In this document: positions 25,204-31,855 of the stretch, piece after piece
Layout: each line of letters begins with the position of its first letter
Position numbering within the stretch: position 1 is the stretch's first letter
Assembly: GCA_003056265.1 (NCBI GenBank)
Contig: NBVN01000002.1
Location: forward strand, 600,001 to 632,000
Length of the DNA: 32,000 nt
Reading direction: 5' to 3'
Source: Zestosphaera tikiterensis
GTDB taxonomy: Archaea; Thermoproteota; Thermoprotei_A; Sulfolobales; NBVN01
The notes under the pieces: model-generated
Databases searched by the model: none
What the model saw: the letters and a program-made list of their open reading frames with translations, nothing else
What the model was told of the DNA's origin: nothing
Made by a program: the position numbers and the translations under genes

Positions 25204-25785
25204 ATGAACAAAAACCAGAAAAGAACGTTGTTGGCGCTTGCGGCCCTAGCTATAGCCGTAGCTGTGGTAAACGCCAGCGTCTTCGCATACTACCAGATAG
25301 ACGTGACAATAACTGGTGTGCAACCACCGGTAGTCTTTGTTGCAGGTAACAACGCTAACAAGGCAGACCTAGGAGCGGGCAACAGCATTGCTGTAGCTCT
25401 AGGAGCGAACAGCACCTCAGCTGCAATAACGATCCACCCAACCTATCAGCACACATACTACCACGACGTACTCAAAGTCAATAACATCGATAGAAATAAA
25501 GCCTATTACGTAGCGTTCAAAGTCACATCAGCTATATCCAGCTGGCCCTCTGATTCGGTTGCGAAGATGATTATATACAGTAGTGGCGGCTCGAAGGTTA
25601 CGGATGTAGACCTCAAAGCTAATAGTGATACGGGCTGGATAGGGCTTCTGGATGCTAACGACTATTACAGGATCGATTTCTACATATACTACCCGGAGGG
25701 TAACCAGCTACCGGGCGGAACAGTGCAAGTTCAGCTGATATATAGCCCGCAGAACCCATCGACAATACCGACATTACCATCGTAG
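25204..25785 (+). CDS. secreted TasA-class-like protein, candidate major filament subunit
   Basis: Signal peptide MNKNQKRTLLALAALAIAVAVVNA with V-N-A at -3..-1, then SVFAYYQIDVTITGVQPPVVFVAG. Beta-rich, 193 aa. The N-terminal block is paralogous to the next gene, and a dedicated S26 peptidase gene follows in the cluster. Confidence 0.7.
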   Translation: MNKNQKRTLLALAALAIAVAVVNASVFAYYQIDVTITGVQPPVVFVAGNNANKADLGAGNSIAVALGANSTSAAITIHPTYQHTYYHDVLKVNNIDRNKAYYVAFKVTSAISSWPSDSVAKMIIYSSGGSKVTDVDLKANSDTGWIGLLDANDYYRIDFYIYYPEGNQLPGGTVQVQLIYSPQNPSTIPTLPS

Positions 25786-25786
25786 C

Positions 25787-25792
25787 GGTGAG
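25787..25792 (+). promoter_or_regulatory. Shine-Dalgarno-like GGTGAG upstream of ATG 25798
   Basis: GGTGAG lies 5 nt upstream of ATG 25798. This supports that ATG as the real start of the second subunit gene even though its frame closes after 13 codons. Confidence 0.4.
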
Positions 25793-25797
25793 TAGAG

Positions 25798-26843
25798 ATG
25801 AAGTACCCTAAACTAAAACTAAGTTTTTTTACATATTAGTTCCGTCACTCTTAGTCCTCACCATATCCTCTGTCTACGCCTCCGTATTCGTTTACTACCC
25901 CCTCTCAACAAATATTCAGGGGGTTAGCCCTCCGGTCGTCTTTCAGGCTGTTTCCGGCATACCTGCTACGATATCTCCTTGGGGTACATACGCAAGTGTA
26001 TCTCTATCGCTACCCCTAATCGTTGTGAACGCCAACTTCTCCGGAACGCTAAGCCCGTGGACTACTATCTCGAGTATCAGTCAAAGTGCATGGAGTCCCG
26101 CATCTGGTGTTCAGGGAGCATCTGATGGATATGTTGCGAGCTTCTCTGAAACTAATAGAGACGTTGATACTGGTTACGGTGAGATATACCAAGAGATATT
26201 TATACCGAGTGTAGCCGGCTCGAGTAGCTATACGGTAACTGTCTACATAAGATTCCAGATTAGTCGGTTTCAGGCTAGGGGAGGCGGTAGTATCTCTATA
26301 ACGTACGGGCTCTTTAACCCTGCCACAAATTCATGGGTATGTGATCAAAGCAATACATATCAAGGAACAACAGGCTGGACTTCCTATTCTGTTAGTTGCT
26401 CCATAAGTGTGTCGGGTAGCTACAGGCTTCGCGCCTACATAACTGTAACCAACACGCGGACGTTCACCATTTATATAGATTACCTCTACATCTCGGTGTA
26501 TAGCTCCAGCAGTGCTGTCCTCAACGTGTACAACCGAGACTCTCAGCCCTACTATGCTAGACTGATGCTAAATTCTGTCACAGGGTTGAATCCTCAGAAC
26601 CTGTTCTGCGAGATAGGCATAGGGGACTCGCAGCCCATACAGATAAGAAGCGGGCAGATAGTTGCGGGCGAAACGTCGGAGGTTGTCCTCTCTTCAGGTA
26701 GCTTCACACCGATAAATGTGAAATGCCTGACAACGTCTAGAGGTAGCTACACGTTGACTCTAACTCTGAGGTATTGCACGGTACCCGGAGGTAACGGTGT
26801 ATGTGTCTACTACCCCTTAACCATAGTTTTAAGTTCTGGGTAA
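25798..26843 (+). CDS. larger paralogue of the preceding subunit (candidate accessory/tip or anchor subunit); frame interrupted at a T7 run
   Basis: ATG 25798 reads MKYPKLKLSFFTY then stop. The frame of ORF 26025..26843 is open back to 25812 with no ATG/GTG/TTG before 26025, yet it encodes FFYILVPSLLVLTISSVYASVFVYYPLSTNIQGVSPPVVFQAV. A -1 shift (or an eighth T) at T7 25824-25830 joins them into a complete signal peptide plus the conserved block. Confidence 0.65.
25824..25830 (+). other. T7 homopolymer / U UUU UUU slippery heptamer at the frame junction
   Basis: The zero-frame codons are AGT TTT TTT ACA, and the heptamer T_TTT_TTT fits the X_XXY_YYZ pattern. The -1 frame continues TAC ATA TTA GTT (YILV...). 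Confidence 0.5.
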
Positions 26844-26849
26844 TGTAGC

Positions 26850-28001
26850 ATGAAGTACCTCGACTATATAGCTCTTGGTGTTATTCTACTCCTGATCGTA
26901 GGTAGGTTGGTTTGGTTTCCCGTAGCTCTTTTCGTGGTTTCCGGGGATTCCATGCTTCCAACTCTTAAGACTGGGGATTTCGTTTTAGGTGTTGCTACGT
27001 ATTTAAGTGGTTATGGAGTTGGTGATGTTGTTGTTTGGTATGCTACGGTAACGCATGGAACTATACATAGGGTTGTTAACGTTTCTGAAGGGTATGTAGT
27101 AACTAAAGGTGATAATAACCCGTTGCCAGATCCTTCAATACCCGCTTCGTTCGTTAAGTATAAGGTCGTGCTCCACATACCTAGGGAGTTTTGGTTTCCC
27201 GCCGCCCTCACGTTAGCTGCTTTCTATATCTTCACGAAGCGTAGGGAGATTGCCTCAACGTTTAAGACCATCACACCGGGTGAGATGAGGGTGGCTTACG
27301 CAGTATTCATATTTTTCGTAGTTGTTGACGTAGCTACTGTGTTTTTAGTGGGTGTTCAGTACTTCAGCCCGGCAACGGTTTTAATTAAGCCTTCGGTTGA
27401 GTTGAGGAGTATGGAAGTCTCTAAAGATGGGGGTAGTATCTACTTAACTTTCACAGTTAAAAACGCTGAGCCTCTAAACGTAAGTTTATGTGAGGTTACC
27501 TTACTAAACGCTACCTTCCCATGTTTAACGCATCGTTTAGTGGGTTCCGTAGCTGTTGTTGAAGTGCCTAGGGAGGCGTATAGCTACGCCTATAGAGCTT
27601 CAAACAACTACATAACTTACGTAAGCTTAAGGCTAAACATAACGTTCGATAAGGGGTGGGTTGAGGGGAGGTATCCATACACTATAAACTGGAGGGCGCT
27701 TCAAGTATCGGTGATTAACAACTCAGTAGTTATTAACAACCCAAACTACATTCAATTCAACTTAACTGAAGTTAAAGTGATTTATATGGGGGTTAAGCAA
27801 CCCTTCAACACACCTGAGGTTTTGAAGATCGAGTACTTAAGCGATTACGTCGTGGAGGCTGGGAAGTCCTTAACGATAGATGTGATGCCTGTAAACGGCA
27901 GTAGATATGCTTACGTAGAGTTTAAATACGAATTTAAGTTCTGGCCTTACGGCGGGGGTGGGGTAGTTCTTGAGAGGAGGAGGGTTGACTTCAAAGGTTA
28001 A
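26850..28001 (+). CDS. S26-family (ER/archaeal/SipW-type) signal peptidase I fused to two TM helices and a ~200-aa extracellular C-terminal domain
   Basis: N-terminal TM, Ser box VVSGDSMLPTLKTGD, His box GTIHRVV and TKGDNNPLPDP box within the first ~115 aa. Hydrophobic helices follow (FWFPAALTLAAFYIF, VAYAVFIFFVVVDVATVFLVGV), then a beta-rich region with N-x-S/T sequons. Confidence 0.8.
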   Translation: MKYLDYIALGVILLLIVGRLVWFPVALFVVSGDSMLPTLKTGDFVLGVATYLSGYGVGDVVVWYATVTHGTIHRVVNVSEGYVVTKGDNNPLPDPSIPASFVKYKVVLHIPREFWFPAALTLAAFYIFTKRREIASTFKTITPGEMRVAYAVFIFFVVVDVATVFLVGVQYFSPATVLIKPSVELRSMEVSKDGGSIYLTFTVKNAEPLNVSLCEVTLLNATFPCLTHRLVGSVAVVEVPREAYSYAYRASNNYITYVSLRLNITFDKGWVEGRYPYTINWRALQVSVINNSVVINNPNYIQFNLTEVKVIYMGVKQPFNTPEVLKIEYLSDYVVEAGKSLTIDVMPVNGSRYAYVEFKYEFKFWPYGGGGVVLERRRVDFKG

Positions 28002-28002
28002 G

Positions 28003-28578
28003 ATGCTTTACGTACTGGCCTGCGTTTCCGCTACGTTCTTAGGGTTGACGTTAATAACGTCTGTAGTGACGCCTATCTACCGTTTCCACGGCGTTGTGGA
28101 GGGTGAGGTCGCTCTCTCATGGTATCTACTGAGCTACTATGATGAGGTAGTGCGTGTTGCTTCGTTAGATGCTGTGAGGGTTTTAACCATTCCTTTATTT
28201 ATATTATCCACGTTTTTAATCGCTTCTTCAGCTTATGCCTTACTAACGTATGTTTTTAAGAAGTTTAACTCCTTACTTTCGGCGGCGGAGTTGCTTTTAG
28301 GCGGTGGTTTAGCCTCGATAACCATGAGTACGTTACTACTCTCAATAGTTAGGATTTTAACGACTGAAGTAAGTGGGTTAAGCGTTGATAACGTATTCTA
28401 TACGTCGGCAGGCTTGGTAAACTTCGGTAGGACATACTACTACGTAAACAGCCTAACTTCAACCCTCCTAAACCCCTTAACGGTTATGGCGTTAAACACG
28501 ATTAACGCTTTACTTGCTGGCGCTACCTACGTATTGCTGACTTCCGAGGTAGGGACTCAAGAGGAAGGGAGTTCTTGA
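28003..28578 (+). CDS. small polytopic membrane protein (about 4 TM), function unknown
   Basis: I prefer ATG 28003 (MLYVLACVSATFLGLTLITSV), 1 nt after the peptidase stop and preceded by GAGAGGAGGAGGG. The track's TTG 27970 start would overlap the peptidase gene by 32 nt. Confidence 0.65.
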   Translation: MLYVLACVSATFLGLTLITSVVTPIYRFHGVVEGEVALSWYLLSYYDEVVRVASLDAVRVLTIPLFILSTFLIASSAYALLTYVFKKFNSLLSAAELLLGGGLASITMSTLLLSIVRILTTEVSGLSVDNVFYTSAGLVNFGRTYYYVNSLTSTLLNPLTVMALNTINALLAGATYVLLTSEVGTQEEGSS

Positions 28579-28638: not shown

Positions 28639-29580
28639 GTGGGGTTTCTGACTTCCTTGTCTAGCGTTATATTTGATAGGCTTTCCAACCTACTTATTGA
28701 GAAGGGTTTAGAGATTAAGTTGATTGTGTCCTGCCTTATAGCTAGAGGTCACGTACTTCTTGAGGGTGTTCCAGGCGTTGCTAAGACTTCAATGGCTAAA
28801 TCCGTTGCTAAGCTCTTCAGCCTTAACTTCAGAAGGGTTCAAATGACTCCGGACCTACTCCCTTTAGATATCGTGGGTTACTACGTCTACGACCAAAGAA
28901 CTGGTGAGTTTAGGTTTAAGCAAGGACCTATATTCACTAACATACTCTTAGTTGATGAGATAAATAGGGCTTCCCCAAGAACTCAAAGTGCTTTACTGGA
29001 GGCTATGCAGGAAAGGCAAGTAACTATAGAGGGGAGTACGTTTAAGCTTGAGGAGCCTTTCTTAGTGATAGCCACTCAAAACCCTATAGAGATGGAGGGT
29101 GTTTTCCCGCTGCCTGAAGCTCAGTTAGATAGGTTCTTAGCTAAGGTTGAGACAGGATATTTAAGCAGTAACGGATTTAAAGAAATGCTTAAGAGGATTG
29201 ACGAGATTGAAAGAGGTGTTGAGGAACTTAAGCCCGTGATGTCTCGCGAGGACCTCCTAACGTTAATGAATAGAGTTAAAGAAGTCAGGGTTGATGACTC
29301 GATATACGATTACGTAGTAAACATAGTTGAGGAAACTAGGAAACACCCAGCGGTTAAGTTAGGTGGGTCGCCTAGGGCTGGGATAGCGATGCTCAGACTA
29401 GCTAAGGCTTGGGCCCTTATAGAAGGGAGGGATTACGTAATACCTGACGACGTCAAGGCTGTAGCGACTGCGGCTTTAACGCATAGGTTGATACTTAAGC
29501 CGGAGTATGAGGTTGAAGGCGTTACATCAACTCAAGTCATTAACGACGTGTTAAGTAAGGTTCCGGTGCCTAAACCTTGA
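28639..29580 (+). CDS. MoxR-family AAA+ ATPase
   Basis: GHVLLEGVPGVAKT (Walker A), LLVDEINRASPRTQSALLEAMQERQVTIEG (Walker B plus the MoxR-typical block), VIATQNP, and C-terminal GGSPRAG...LTHRL lid region. Confidence 0.9.
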   Translation: MGFLTSLSSVIFDRLSNLLIEKGLEIKLIVSCLIARGHVLLEGVPGVAKTSMAKSVAKLFSLNFRRVQMTPDLLPLDIVGYYVYDQRTGEFRFKQGPIFTNILLVDEINRASPRTQSALLEAMQERQVTIEGSTFKLEEPFLVIATQNPIEMEGVFPLPEAQLDRFLAKVETGYLSSNGFKEMLKRIDEIERGVEELKPVMSREDLLTLMNRVKEVRVDDSIYDYVVNIVEETRKHPAVKLGGSPRAGIAMLRLAKAWALIEGRDYVIPDDVKAVATAALTHRLILKPEYEVEGVTSTQVINDVLSKVPVPKP

Positions 29581-30725
29581 AAACACGTTTGAAGATAGTG
29601 GCGTTGTCTTTAGCTACGCTACTCCTACTTAACCTACTCAACTTAGCAGTTACTCAAGCTCAGGAAGTCCCTAGACACACCCCTGGGTTCCCAGAAAGCA
29701 GTTTAGAGGGTTTAACGCCTTTCTTAAGTGAATGGCAGAAAATCCTCAACATGTTGTCTAACGCTACGTTAAGTGATGTTTTAAGTAACGCATCAGCTAA
29801 GGAAGAGCTTCAAAACTACGTTAAAGAGCTTGAAGCTGAGAATAAGTTAACTTTAGAGGAGAGGGAAGCTTTAAAAGCTACTTTAAGCGGGGACGTAAGC
29901 GTTGATGAGTTGATGAAGAACATACGTAATGAGGACTTACGTAATGTATTGAATGAGCTTCTTAACATGAGTAAGGAAGGCCTACTTAAAAGCGAGGATT
30001 TAATGAAGTATTTAAGTATGGTTGCTAAGATGCGTGAAGAGGGCTATATCTCAATAAGCGATTACATATCTGCTTTAAACATTATGAAGACTTTAACGAG
30101 GGATGAAGGAGTGCTCACAGCCATAGATAGTGAGTTACTTAAGTCTATGATTAACTTACTAGCTAGCGCTGGGAGCACGCCTGAATTTACAGCACTGCCT
30201 TCAATACCTTCGGGGAGCCCGTCCTTAAGCCTTAAAACCCCTGAGGTCGGTAGCACATCAAGATACTTAGAGGGGTTTAAAATACCCTCCATATCCGTGG
30301 CTTTCCCCTCACTGTCTCCGCTAGCTCTTCAAGACGTTCTACAATACGTGGTCTTAGCTATTGTTTTGATTGTCGTTTTTTCCTTAGGTTTTCTCTTTAT
30401 TAGAAGGTTTAGAGAACCCATAGCTCGGGCGTTCTCTAAAGCCGTTTTAAGTAGGGGTGAGGTAGGTTTAGAAGGGCTTCCCGAACCCATCAAGTATTAT
30501 TGGAGTTCCGTTAAGGCTGTAGAGACATACACGAAGATTAGGAAGTTAGATAACGTAACTCATAGGGAGTACTTAAGTAGGGTATCGCAGTCTTTAGGTG
30601 ATTTAGTTGAGGAGTTTAAGAAAGTAACTCAAGCCTACGAGCTCGTTAGGTTTGGCGGTTCAGTAAGTGATGAAGTGGTTAAGGAAGCTAAAGAGAGTTA
30701 TGTGATGTTGGTGAGGAGGTTGTGA
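29577..30725 (+). CDS. membrane protein: signal peptide, ~230-aa helical extracytoplasmic region, TM helix, cytoplasmic DUF4129-like tail
   Basis: MKTRLKIVALSLATLLLLNLLNLAVTQAQ signal and TM VLQYVVLAIVLIVVFSLGFLFI. The tail THREYLSRVSQSLGDLVEEFKKVTQAYELVRFGG resembles the DUF4129 pattern (T-x-x-E...Y-x-x-x-RYG). The TTG start overlaps the moxR stop by 4 nt. Confidence 0.6.
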   Translation: MKTRLKIVALSLATLLLLNLLNLAVTQAQEVPRHTPGFPESSLEGLTPFLSEWQKILNMLSNATLSDVLSNASAKEELQNYVKELEAENKLTLEEREALKATLSGDVSVDELMKNIRNEDLRNVLNELLNMSKEGLLKSEDLMKYLSMVAKMREEGYISISDYISALNIMKTLTRDEGVLTAIDSELLKSMINLLASAGSTPEFTALPSIPSGSPSLSLKTPEVGSTSRYLEGFKIPSISVAFPSLSPLALQDVLQYVVLAIVLIVVFSLGFLFIRRFREPIARAFSKAVLSRGEVGLEGLPEPIKYYWSSVKAVETYTKIRKLDNVTHREYLSRVSQSLGDLVEEFKKVTQAYELVRFGGSVSDEVVKEAKESYVMLVRRL

Positions 30726-31855
30726 AAGTCGGTGAGTTAATTCTTAAGGTAGTTCCTAGGTTGGTTGCTTTAGCTGTTCTCTGGGATTCCATAACAATCT
30801 TAACTCAAGAGCTGCCTAAGGTTACCGCCCCTCAAGCCTTCATCTTAAGCCTTATCTCAACCCCTTCAAACATGCTTTTAACGGCGTCTTCAGTAGTTGC
30901 TGTGTTAACGGTTGCTACGTCCTCACCAACGCTTTACGTGTTTTCCGTGATACTCCTAGCAGTCGGTAGAGGTGTTTTAGGCTACGCCATATCCCCTTCA
31001 GTAATCGCCGGCTTGGCTCTAGTCCTTATACTGGATACGTTGGCCTTAACTTACAGAAGCGGTCAAAGAACGTCGGTAAGGATGGGTGGGAAAGCTTTTA
31101 CATACGGTGTTTTAAGCGTTGCGTTTGTTTTCTTGGGGGTTATTACGGCCTCCCTATTCTTCAGTCAATACTTAACGACTGTTGTCACAACCATATTGAG
31201 CGTTTCGAAGTATAGCGTCGTTAAGTACGGTGTCCTAGCTTCCTTAATCGATAATCCATTGATTAAATTATGCGTTGTTGTTTTGATTGTGTTGTTCCTA
31301 TATGAGGTGATAGTCAACGTATTCGACACGGCCTCCATCTACCTAAGGCCTTCGAGGAAAGTCTGTTTATCAACCCTTAAGAACCGCTCTGATATAGACG
31401 TAGTTATTGAGAGGCCCCTACAAACTCTATTCACGTTAATATTAGCTAGTTTAGTAGCTCCCGTTATTTACGTGTTTTTAATCGATATAATCACCCCTAA
31501 GTTAGTCGCGGTGCTCACACCGTTAAGTGGGTTTTTAAAGAATCCCTACGTAGCTGCTGCGTTAAGCTTAGCTACGTATGCATTAGCCTTCGCTTTAACG
31601 AAGCCTTTAATCTCCTCGTTAACTGTGGAGGAGGTTAAGTTAAGGAACTTAACCTTGCCAGCCACTTTAAGCTTGTTCATTTATTTAAGCGCTGTTTTAA
31701 TCTCCTACGATAGGGGCTTAACCTTAAGTCAAAGCTTCTTAAGTCCGGACTTCACGACATTAAGCAACACTCTCTATAGAGGTTATTTAAACTTCTACAC
31801 GTCTTTATTTTATATTCTTGAAATAATACCTAAGCTTGTGGGGGCTGCGCCATGA
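30722..31855 (+). CDS. polytopic integral membrane protein (about 9-10 TM), function unknown
   Basis: 377 aa and almost entirely hydrophobic. The GTG start overlaps the upstream stop (GTGA). Confidence 0.65.
   Translation: MKVGELILKVVPRLVALAVLWDSITILTQELPKVTAPQAFILSLISTPSNMLLTASSVVAVLTVATSSPTLYVFSVILLAVGRGVLGYAISPSVIAGLALVLILDTLALTYRSGQRTSVRMGGKAFTYGVLSVAFVFLGVITASLFFSQYLTTVVTTILSVSKYSVVKYGVLASLIDNPLIKLCVVVLIVLFLYEVIVNVFDTASIYLRPSRKVCLSTLKNRSDIDVVIERPLQTLFTLILASLVAPVIYVFLIDIITPKLVAVLTPLSGFLKNPYVAAALSLATYALAFALTKPLISSLTVEEVKLRNLTLPATLSLFIYLSAVLISYDRGLTLSQSFLSPDFTTLSNTLYRGYLNFYTSLFYILEIIPKLVGAAP

Follow-up and report, generated by a model that had tools for sequence, protein, structure and literature searches.

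A probable donor-strand filament locus of Zestosphaera tikiterensis that pairs a thread-type pilin with an S26 signal peptidase and a split accessory gene

The closest described counterpart of the locus considered here, a set of four plus-strand genes at positions 25204-28578 of a 32,000-nucleotide stretch of the Zestosphaera tikiterensis genome (contig NBVN01000002.1, positions 600,001 to 632,000; hereafter the window), is the thread of Sulfolobus acidocaldarius (Saci_0406, PDB 7PNB; Gaines et al. 2022, PMC9715654), which was the best match in both sequence and fold and likewise comes from the Thermoproteota. In that filament the donor strand of each subunit completes the sheet of the next and extends to the subunit after it, and an isopeptide bond joins Asn57 to the alpha-amine of Asp24 two subunits away; residues Met1 to Ala23 are missing in the solved structure, the chain beginning at Asp24 (PMC9715654). 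The same study called the assembly pathway unknown and assumed a generic signal peptidase I (SPase I) for Saci_0406.

Dedicated peptidases have been described in four other systems, namely TasA (SipW), Tafi (TafD), AbpX, and the separate abpX locus of Z. tikiterensis itself. TasA fibres assemble by donor-strand exchange (PMC9674648, PMC10151520), while Tafi, an archaeal donor-strand pilus, has a genetically proven dedicated S26 peptidase in a cluster that also codes for tip and anchor proteins (PMC11821415, PMC12337348), deletion of TafD abolishing both TafA processing and fimbriae (PMC11821415). The thread and ABP clusters are without homologues of tafD and tafG (PMC11821415), and no dedicated peptidase was reported near abpA (Wang et al., PMC9245690). 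Thread, AbpA, CanX and AbpX have been grouped by HHsearch in a 'TasA superfamily' (PMC12518558), and thread, Tafi and AbpX loci share a pattern in which a short major subunit precedes a larger minor one bearing the same strand (PMC9715654, PMC11821415).

The four genes, designated P, A, S and M (genes 1 to 4) and separated by gaps of 12 and 6 nucleotides followed by an overlap, would on the evidence of their sequences combine a thread-type pilin, a TafD-like peptidase layout and a new partner with four transmembrane segments, with no DUF5305 protein; no description of such a cassette was found in the literature searched. It is considered likely that the locus encodes a donor-strand filament processed by S, while the platform or anchor functions of M and of the C-terminal domain in S, transcriptional attenuation, and recoding at a T-tract are put forward with lower confidence. 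An initial annotation had proposed a donor-strand filament locus with a major subunit, a larger accessory one sharing its strand, and a dedicated peptidase, and as far as sequence and fold show that proposal holds.

The product of gene P (25204-25785, 193 amino acids) is identical to PUA33678.1 (A0A2R7Y817) of Z. tikiterensis, and the reading ...AIAVAVVNA/SVFAYYQIDVTITGVQPPVVFVAG initially given for it is present as quoted. A profile (A1) built from an alignment of 30 relatives of gene 1 matched a single entry among PDB sequences, 7pnb_A (Saci_0406), with E 7.6e-5 over residues 4-186 against 3-198, AbpA not being matched by sequence, and comparison of the P family with Saci_0406 using hhalign gave 95.9%, E 6e-9, over 184 columns. 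The predicted signal peptide of P (residues 1-24, MNKNQKRTLLALAALAIAVAVVNA, 25204-25275), modelled by AlphaFold2 with a helix at 3-22, aligns with Met1-Ala23 of Saci_0406, and the predicted donor strand (residues 25-47, SVFAYYQIDVTITGVQPPVVFVA, 25276-25344) aligns with the thread donor strand DVIYYYQGQITVGNVAPPMYFA. With VNA/SVFAYYQIDVTITGVQPPVVF of P lying on LVA/DVIYYYQGQITVGNVAPPMYF of Saci_0406 the predicted cleavage sites coincide, so that in both proteins (VNA/SVFAYYQ and LVA/DVIYYYQ) a Sec-type signal peptide would be cut directly before a YY(Y) strand, followed in turn by PP-x-x-F. Direct reading of the N-terminus, MNKNQKRTLL, revealed no twin-arginine motif, and both the alignment of the 30 relatives and motif counts marked the predicted donor strand as the best-conserved block of a small family (153 clusters at 50% identity among 1.84 billion representatives).

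The AlphaFold2 model of P, built on A1 with a predicted local distance difference test (pLDDT) score of 90.7, comprised a signal-peptide helix, a beta-sandwich and, at residues 23-42, a segment left unpaired. Foldseek placed 7pnb_A first (E 4.3e-7, TM-score 0.63/0.66, root-mean-square deviation 4.5 over 195 columns) and AbpA from Pyrobaculum second (7ueg_A, E 2.6e-6, TM-score 0.55/0.58), with Pyrodictium cannulae and chaperone-usher pilins below them. The three best structural matches (thread, AbpA and cannulae) are thus all archaeal donor-strand filaments. From profile and model together, P is judged to be a remote but significant homologue of the thread subunit; the SVF-x-YY strand of P would insert into a neighbouring subunit. 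The kinship to TasA and AbpA initially suggested requires some adjustment: the nearest relative is the thread, AbpA comes second and by fold, and TasA was absent from the top 50 fold matches, the TasA label therefore being right at the superfamily level only, where it rests on the published grouping (PMC12518558). Nor did the profile searches then proposed bring any match, since neither P nor A (the latter with its reading frame repaired) matched Peptidase_M73 (PF12389) or TIGR04088 (NCBIfam) at E<=1, any other Pfam family, or DUF1102 and DUF5305 in Pfam and NCBIfam, and P fell into no NCBIfam family at all.

A second line of evidence is the likeness between the N-termini of P and A. A profile (A5) from an alignment of 15 relatives of gene 2 found no match among PDB sequences, yet hhalign of A5 against A1 returned a probability of 97.3% (E 2.1e-11) across 73 columns, taking in the hydrophobic core and cleavage site, then the strand, its PP-x-x-F turn, and the strand after that (…IAVALGANSTSAAITI against …VSVSLGPNxTSAxVTV). 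This likeness, far above chance, indicates from the profiles that the two proteins are homologous across signal peptide, strand and first sheet strand, and upholds the earlier view of a paralogous N-terminus with a conserved SVF-x-YY block. Of 77 distinct pilins, 71 have ..F.Y and served for counting the motif itself: position -1 was A in 65 of these 71 and -3 was V, A or I, while +1 was S, A or G, +2 was V in 62, +6 was Y in 59 and +7 was P in 62. Ser, Thr and Tyr make up 25% of mature P and 33% of mature A, as expected of the Ser/Thr/Tyr-rich proteins first described, but the N-x-S/T sequons said to accompany them amount to one per mature protein (N69 in P, N80 in A), compared with seven in S.

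These observations bear on whether P and A might instead be monomeric beta-sandwich glycoproteins or adhesins, secreted or associated with the S-layer, whose specialised signal peptide is processed by S. Such an interpretation would suit a P family known from sequences and monomer models alone and a P/A family without Pfam annotation, and jelly-roll and Ig-like folds are common among surface proteins that do not polymerise. It is nevertheless regarded as very unlikely, given that the three best structural matches of P are all donor-strand filaments, that the mature N-terminus aligns residue by residue with the thread donor strand and is unpaired in the monomer model, and that a short major subunit accompanied by a larger minor one with the same strand repeats the thread, Tafi and AbpX arrangement (PMC9715654, PMC11821415).

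Gene S (26850-28001) begins 6 nucleotides past the stop of A, and its product scored 54.6 bits against TIGR02228, the archaeal signal peptidase I model (cut-off 51.85), over residues 8-98 only, the directly adjoining S26 peptidase gene of the initial annotation being thereby borne out. Against NF046067 (SipW) it reached 20.8 bits, the cut-off being 190, and it is thus not a SipW equivalog. Residues 1-110 (26850-27179) comprise an N-terminal transmembrane anchor and the S26 catalytic domain with Ser34, His73 and Asp88/Asp94; Ser34, Met35, His73, Gly87, Asn90 and Asp94 were invariant in 32 full-length homologues, Asp88 nearly so, and Ser34 and His73 align on the catalytic Ser and Lys of S. aureus SpsB, a signature which, read from the alignments, assigns S to the Ser/His type of S26 peptidases found in ER, archaeal and SipW enzymes. 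Next come two further membrane helices and a basic loop (residues 112-166, 27183-27347; AlphaFold2 helices 112-129/131-140 and 146-166), and then an all-beta C-terminal domain of two Ig/FN3-like sandwiches with six sequons (residues 182-383, 27393-28001). The AlphaFold2 model of S (pLDDT 85.4) reproduced anchor, catalytic domain, two membrane helices and an all-beta domain at approximately 182-380, mostly above 90, and the basic character of the loop KRREIASTFK would place both the catalytic and the C-terminal domain outside the cell.

With this C-terminal domain as query, Foldseek returned RbmA, FimC, PapD, Caf1M and FN3 pairs (E 4e-5 to 2e-3, low TM-scores). The domain had no Pfam match and no kinship to the pilin or accessory profiles, and is best described from its model as an extracellular tandem Ig-like ectodomain, with no more specific label. 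A PapD-like chaperone role is not claimed, generic FN3/Ig tandems scoring as well, and the ORF (open reading frame) list and Pfam revealed no usher-like gene in the cassette. Full-length relatives of S, in approximately 31 clusters, conserve the domain, and the remaining matches cover the catalytic part only. Genes 3 and 4 correspond to PUA33679.1 ('signal peptidase I') and PUA33680.1. The latter, M (27970-28578, 202 amino acids from TTG 27970, with an alternative ATG at 28003), has the four hydrophobic segments initially ascribed to the gene after the peptidase, and shares with 19 relatives four transmembrane segments and two conserved outer loops (P..Y.F.G...G.V.L and TSAG). No Pfam or NCBIfam family and no DUF5305 was found for these 20 members, nor any DUF5305 match in S (Pfam).

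In overall plan the locus resembles tapA-sipW-tasA of Bacillus subtilis, in that a major subunit and a minor one with its own donor strand are accompanied by a dedicated S26 peptidase of the ER type (Ser/His), but S differs from SipW in its extra transmembrane helices and Ig-like ectodomain, and the Bacillus operon is without the four-segment partner found here. Compared by architecture, the layout of S resembles that of TafD, with an S26 domain, extra transmembrane helices and a second extracellular domain, although S has three transmembrane helices and TafD four (PMC11821415); and the pilins are thread-like, not TafA/TafE or DUF1102 proteins, with no DUF5305 (TafG) protein beside them. Proteins with four transmembrane segments also occur in the ABP operon of the AbpA bundling pili (PMC9245690). 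The AbpX loci of Pyrodictium similarly pair a dedicated SPase I with minor and tip subunits, but that peptidase has ten transmembrane helices and is partnered by a DUF5305 protein, and AbpX itself is an acidic protein that assembles in a Ca-dependent manner (bioRxiv 10.64898/2026.01.04.697558); mature P has an isoelectric point of 5.4 and 7% Asp+Glu. That Z. tikiterensis possesses a separate SPase-bearing abpX locus (bioRxiv 10.64898/2026.01.04.697558) means that S is not the sole signal peptidase of the genome. Identity of the present locus with the published Zestosphaera abpX was considered and ruled out, both the accessions (A0A2R7Y7S4, Y7T0, Y9R0) and the type of peptidase being different.

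A scan of GTDB species genomes with the A1 profile returned 47 loci, in which ORFs were classed using hidden Markov models for P, A, S and M, those for A and M being length-filtered because of M-A fusions. The hosts were Desulfurococcales, Acidilobaceae, Pyrodictiaceae, Ignisphaera, Zestosphaera, and Thermogladius sp. 4427co, plus a few metagenome-assembled genomes (MAGs) labelled Nezha-, Brock- or Geothermarchaeota, Methanomethylicia or Nitrososphaeria. The order P-A-S-M on one strand was recorded in approximately 28 of the 47; S is syntenic with a pilin or accessory gene in about 40, in several orders, and M follows S in about 30. In two distinct loci (L001/L002 and L009) A lies upstream on the opposite strand, and six (L005 8278-10392, L018, L029, L031, L032, L037) have the variant P-S-MA, in which M and A form a fusion of 570-760 amino acids, the junction still having a basic loop followed by a hydrophobic segment and G-A/S-V-F-x-Y. 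The sequence of this junction is topologically consistent with an internal cleavage site resembling that of a signal peptide, four transmembrane segments ending in the cytoplasm and a cleavable fifth following them, which implies that S would release the accessory protein from a membrane protein. Loci without S or M were mostly those cut by contig ends, the exceptions being L051 (P only) and L017/L020. In these last two (L017 and L020 9711-10124, from MAGs labelled Nitrososphaeria and Geothermarchaeota) the S that follows P-A is a catalytic domain of 137 amino acids without the transmembrane hairpin or Ig-like domain, and no four-segment gene was detected.

The same survey helps to decide whether S might be a general signal peptidase that merely adjoins the pilin genes, as its match to the generic archaeal SPase I model, and the generic enzyme assumed for Saci_0406 (PMC9715654), would allow. 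This possibility appears highly improbable: an S with the C-terminal domain follows a pilin or accessory gene in approximately 40 loci from several orders, the roughly 31 clusters of the full-length family have a narrow spread like that of the pilin, S barely exceeds the TIGR02228 cut-off and has an extra domain of approximately 200 amino acids, the two cassettes of locus L003 have an S each, and another SPase I is available at the Zestosphaera abpX locus (bioRxiv 10.64898/2026.01.04.697558). The two cassettes of L003 (597-7174) stand in tandem on one metagenomic contig with a 142-amino-acid remnant of a peptidase gene between them, and the peptidase of the second has Gly aligned at the catalytic His (LGRV against IHRV). 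In the Z. tikiterensis MAG a second contig of 6460 nucleotides codes for a 94%-identical peptidase and a four-segment protein, B7O98_09560 (P0032, P0100), and belongs either to a second cassette or to a strain variant binned together with the MAG.

On the preferred interpretation, P-A-S-M would constitute a four-gene operon whose product is a Sec-dependent filament on the cell surface, belonging to the archaeal thread family. Pre-P and pre-A would be exported and held in the membrane by their signal peptides until membrane-bound S cuts after VNA in P and VYA in A, whereupon the freed SVF-x-YY...PP-x-x-F strand would complete the beta-sandwich of a neighbour by donor-strand complementation and so polymerise P. 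A, with the same strand, the same first sheet strand and a large extra body, would be a low-copy end subunit (tip, cap, initiator or adhesin), and the tandem Ig-like domain of S together with M would form a membrane platform coupling cleavage to assembly or anchoring. An oligo-T tract some 40 nucleotides after the pilin stop would attenuate transcription, leaving P in excess over A, S and M, and in the Z. tikiterensis lineage the same T7 would also be a -1 recoding site needed for A. What we infer from the gene sequences and models described is cleavage by S, strand insertion, attenuation and recoding, as well as the parts played by A, by the C-terminal domain and by M.

Several points weigh against this scheme. 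The locus is known here from its genes and predicted monomer structures alone, and the identity between P and Saci_0406, at 21-24%, is remote. Mature pilins begin with Ser, Ala or Gly here as opposed to Asp24 in the thread, the isopeptide-forming Asn57 of which is not clearly conserved in the P family (Asn60 of P lies within one column of thread Asn56/57 but varies within the family, and Asn50, an invariant residue, falls on thread Asn49), and one sequon per pilin contrasts with five glycans on the thread subunit. Neither hhalign nor hmmsearch found homologues of S or M in the thread locus of S. acidocaldarius (L008), and because the characterised thread locus is thus without them the thread system does not validate the machinery proposed here. 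The resemblance of the C-terminal domain of S to FimC, PapD and Caf1M (E 9e-5 to 2e-3) is equalled by FN3/Ig tandems. Finally, some loci are without A nearby (L010, Thermogladius) or have a short S (L017, L020), and since the loci are phylogenetically related their counts overstate independence, as do the binomial p-values for the oligo-T tract considered below.

As in the thread operon, a minor pilin-like gene with the same type of N-terminus lies directly downstream of the major one, but the accessory protein here has 320-520 amino acids with an inserted body, whereas its thread counterpart is a pilin paralogue of 181. The 276- and 266-amino-acid proteins of the Sulfolobus saci_0404-0408 cluster gave no match to the S, M, A or P profiles, and the accessory profile gave a weak hmmsearch match to the 442-amino-acid protein of L008 (E 5e-6 in an 11-sequence database), to which hhalign at 0.9% lends no support; Pfam yielded nothing usable for ten accessory or thread-locus proteins. 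Although Gaines et al. reported Saci_0405 to be without a signal peptide (PMC9715654), its gene, the putative thread cap gene (L008 7632-8171, L059 3631-4176), has an in-frame upstream extension from a GTG which reads as a signal peptide followed by a start resembling a donor strand, MAGVLDKLKKVFLILVLVLASSFVLTTLS/DYVLFYTSTNTI. The extension is interrupted in L008 by a TGA seven codons before the annotated start, replaced in strain SUSAZ by TCA to give one ORF of 181 amino acids, so that the missing signal peptide may be an annotation artefact arising from the in-frame TGA.

Gene A itself is broken in the window. Its ATG at 25798, with GGTGAG 6 nucleotides upstream, opens a 0 frame coding for the basic n-region MKYPKLKLSFF (25798-25830, plus strand) that reads MKYPKLKLSFFTY before reaching a stop. 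The frames meet at a T7 tract (U_UUU_UUU, 25824-25830), which is also the oligo-T element after the pilin gene, and from 25830 to 26843 the h-region, the predicted cut site VYA/SVFVYY at 25880/25881, the predicted donor strand (25881-25943), and a beta-rich body of approximately 300 amino acids all lie in the -1 frame. That frame reads …LTISSVYA/SVFVYYPLSTNIQGVSPPVVF… to a stop at 26843, its 338 codons fully open and its first ATG, GTG or TTG of its own being GTG 26025, and eight T instead of seven would give an ordinary pre-protein, MKYPKLKLSFFYILVPSLLVLTISSVYA/SVFVYY…. The text ...LTISSVYA/SVFVYYPLSTNIQGVSPPVVFQAV initially quoted for gene 2 is therefore present up to the stop, but does not belong to a single ORF and requires a -1 change of frame. 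Because the ORF is split in this manner, the 0-frame start running into a stop with the rest in the -1 frame, GenBank calls no gene 2 protein: PUA33678 and PUA33679 are consecutive accessions with none between them.

The same break was found in four lineages (the window, L006/L007, L057 and L004, representing one MAG and three metagenome samples), the pilins of which are 82% (L006/L007), 72% (L057, from another metagenome) and about 54% (L004) identical to P of the window. Each has a Shine-Dalgarno-like GGTGA motif and an ATG, from which a basic nonapeptide leads into exactly seven T; two codons past the run the 0 frame ends in TAG, and a long ORF continues at -1. The sequences of L056 and L058 end short of the site, and metagenome scans for further copies of the region found none. 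By way of comparison, the more distant orthologues of A are single intact ORFs (e.g. L003 1182-2228, L014 8525-9556) with an in-frame T5-T9 tract at the same place.

In the -1 frame, the proportions of synonymous (pS) and nonsynonymous (pN) differences among the window, L006/L007 and L057 were 0.13-0.20 and 0.05-0.06 respectively, with pN/pS of 0.29, 0.29 and 0.46 for the three lineage pairs (binomial p 7e-4, 8e-4 and 0.04), as against 0.55-1.59 when the same pairs were read in the other two frames. These ratios indicate purifying selection downstream of the break, and a break common to four lineages with selection in the -1 frame argues against both sequencing error and a decaying pseudogene. 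The pilin evolves much faster than A, with pN of 0.10-0.16 compared with 0.05-0.06 in the same three lineages. The start of gene 2 (25770-25960) has 94% DNA identity among the window, L006 and L057, the pilin proteins themselves being only 72-82% identical. In L004 (8634-8915) a far more divergent pilin, P0030, is followed by the Shine-Dalgarno-ATG-basic peptide-T7-TAG module nearly base for base, joined to a different and longer accessory body (…PPYSYTCIALVRTYRGAVTYTDFE…), and this junction suggests that the 5' module has been exchanged modularly.

Three routes are candidates for restoring the frame, to judge from the sequence: ribosomal -1 frameshifting, transcriptional slippage on the T7, or a phase-variable tract. 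T_TTT_TTT at 25824-25830 fits the X_XXY_YYZ form of a slippery heptamer, the 0-frame codons being TTT TTT. Against recoding, no stimulatory RNA structure was predicted after the tract (minimum free energy -2.6 kcal/mol, z 0.51, for 97 nucleotides from the tract), nor did the region match any Rfam family.

That absent structure, the broken and unannotated ORF, and the P-S-M locus of Thermogladius (L010) with no A nearby would all fit a gene inactivated by the T7 frameshift, any filament of this lineage being built from P alone with S and M. Such a dead gene is nevertheless considered unlikely: the exact T7 break and the 0-frame stop recur in four lineages, one of which (L004) joins them to a different accessory body; the -1 frame stays open for 338 codons with substitutions biased to synonymous sites in that frame only; and conservation extends to the 0-frame ATG, its GGTGA motif and the basic n-region.

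The classic contingency switch of bacteria is a homopolymer tract at the 5' end of a gene for a surface structure, and replication slippage between seven and eight T could in principle turn A off and on in subpopulations, the assemblies presenting the 'off' majority. Phase variation of this kind would reconcile purifying selection with a broken consensus sequence, but all four lineages have T7 and none T8, and the intact orthologues also carry an in-frame T5-T9 at the same place, from which it follows that the tract is kept for another reason; this switch is accordingly rated as quite improbable.

In the 100 nucleotides listed after each pilin stop for 48 loci (L002-L055 plus the window), a run of at least five T occurred within 80 nucleotides of the stop in 40, starting at a median of 43.5 nucleotides downstream, with lengths of T5-T9 and at least six T in 32 of those 40, whereas same-strand background windows contained T>=5 in 5.4% and T>=6 in 1.3% of cases. 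Equivalent runs followed A in 2/33, S in 1/40, and M, the last gene, in 6/29, and the tract was present after P whether A or S came next. In view of the shared ancestry of the loci noted above, this contrast between gene positions is a stronger argument than the p-values. A T7 also lies approximately 40 nucleotides after the Saci_0406 stop in two S. acidocaldarius strains, in which thread system saci_0405 is expressed at a lower level than saci_0406 (PMC9715654); and archaeal U-tracts are stated to set termination efficacy (PMC8716108). From its position the tract is probably a transcription attenuator placed after the gene for the major subunit.

A tentative extension, to which we give somewhat less than even weight, is that the tract serves two purposes, acting as attenuator across the P family and the Sulfolobus thread operon, and in the Z. 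tikiterensis lineage additionally as an obligatory -1 recoding site. With comparable reserve, the change of frame might come about through a ribosomal slip on U_UUU_UUU or through RNA-polymerase slippage adding a U, A then arising from a small recoded fraction only. The only established programmed -1 frameshift in Archaea, fucA1 of Saccharolobus solfataricus (PMC1616953, PMC8211752), is likewise a crenarchaeal pair of 0 and -1 ORFs joined at a slippery heptamer, A_AAA_AAT there and T_TTT_TTT here. It differs in that the shift proposed for A falls within the coding region for the signal peptide, nine codons in, with no predicted stem-loop, and at a tract coinciding with an oligo-T element conserved after the preceding gene.

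Immediately downstream of the cassette (28639-31855) the window contains genes for a MoxR-type AAA ATPase (AAA_3, E 8e-64), a DUF4129 protein, and a protein with multiple transmembrane segments, which look like a separate, ordinary MoxR module; among the loci scanned, the flanking genes (a 267-amino-acid protein, MoxR and DUF4129) were not kept beside the cassette beyond one close relative.

For the biology of these filaments, the cassette ties a thread-type pilin to a peptidase, a four-segment membrane protein and an accessory protein, which are candidates for the missing assembly platform, and the locus would bridge the thread/ABP group and the peptidase-dependent group of TasA, AbpX and Tafi. 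One of the 47 genomes, that of Thermogladius sp. 4427co, is recorded as a complete chromosome and bears no MAG label, so there may be a host amenable to culture. Taken together, the oligo-T tract and the T7 break offer a simple model for the scarcity of minor subunits and a possible second archaeal case of -1 recoding; should the dual role of the tract prove true, Archaea would have their second documented -1 recoding event, and the first to be tied to the stoichiometry of a filament.

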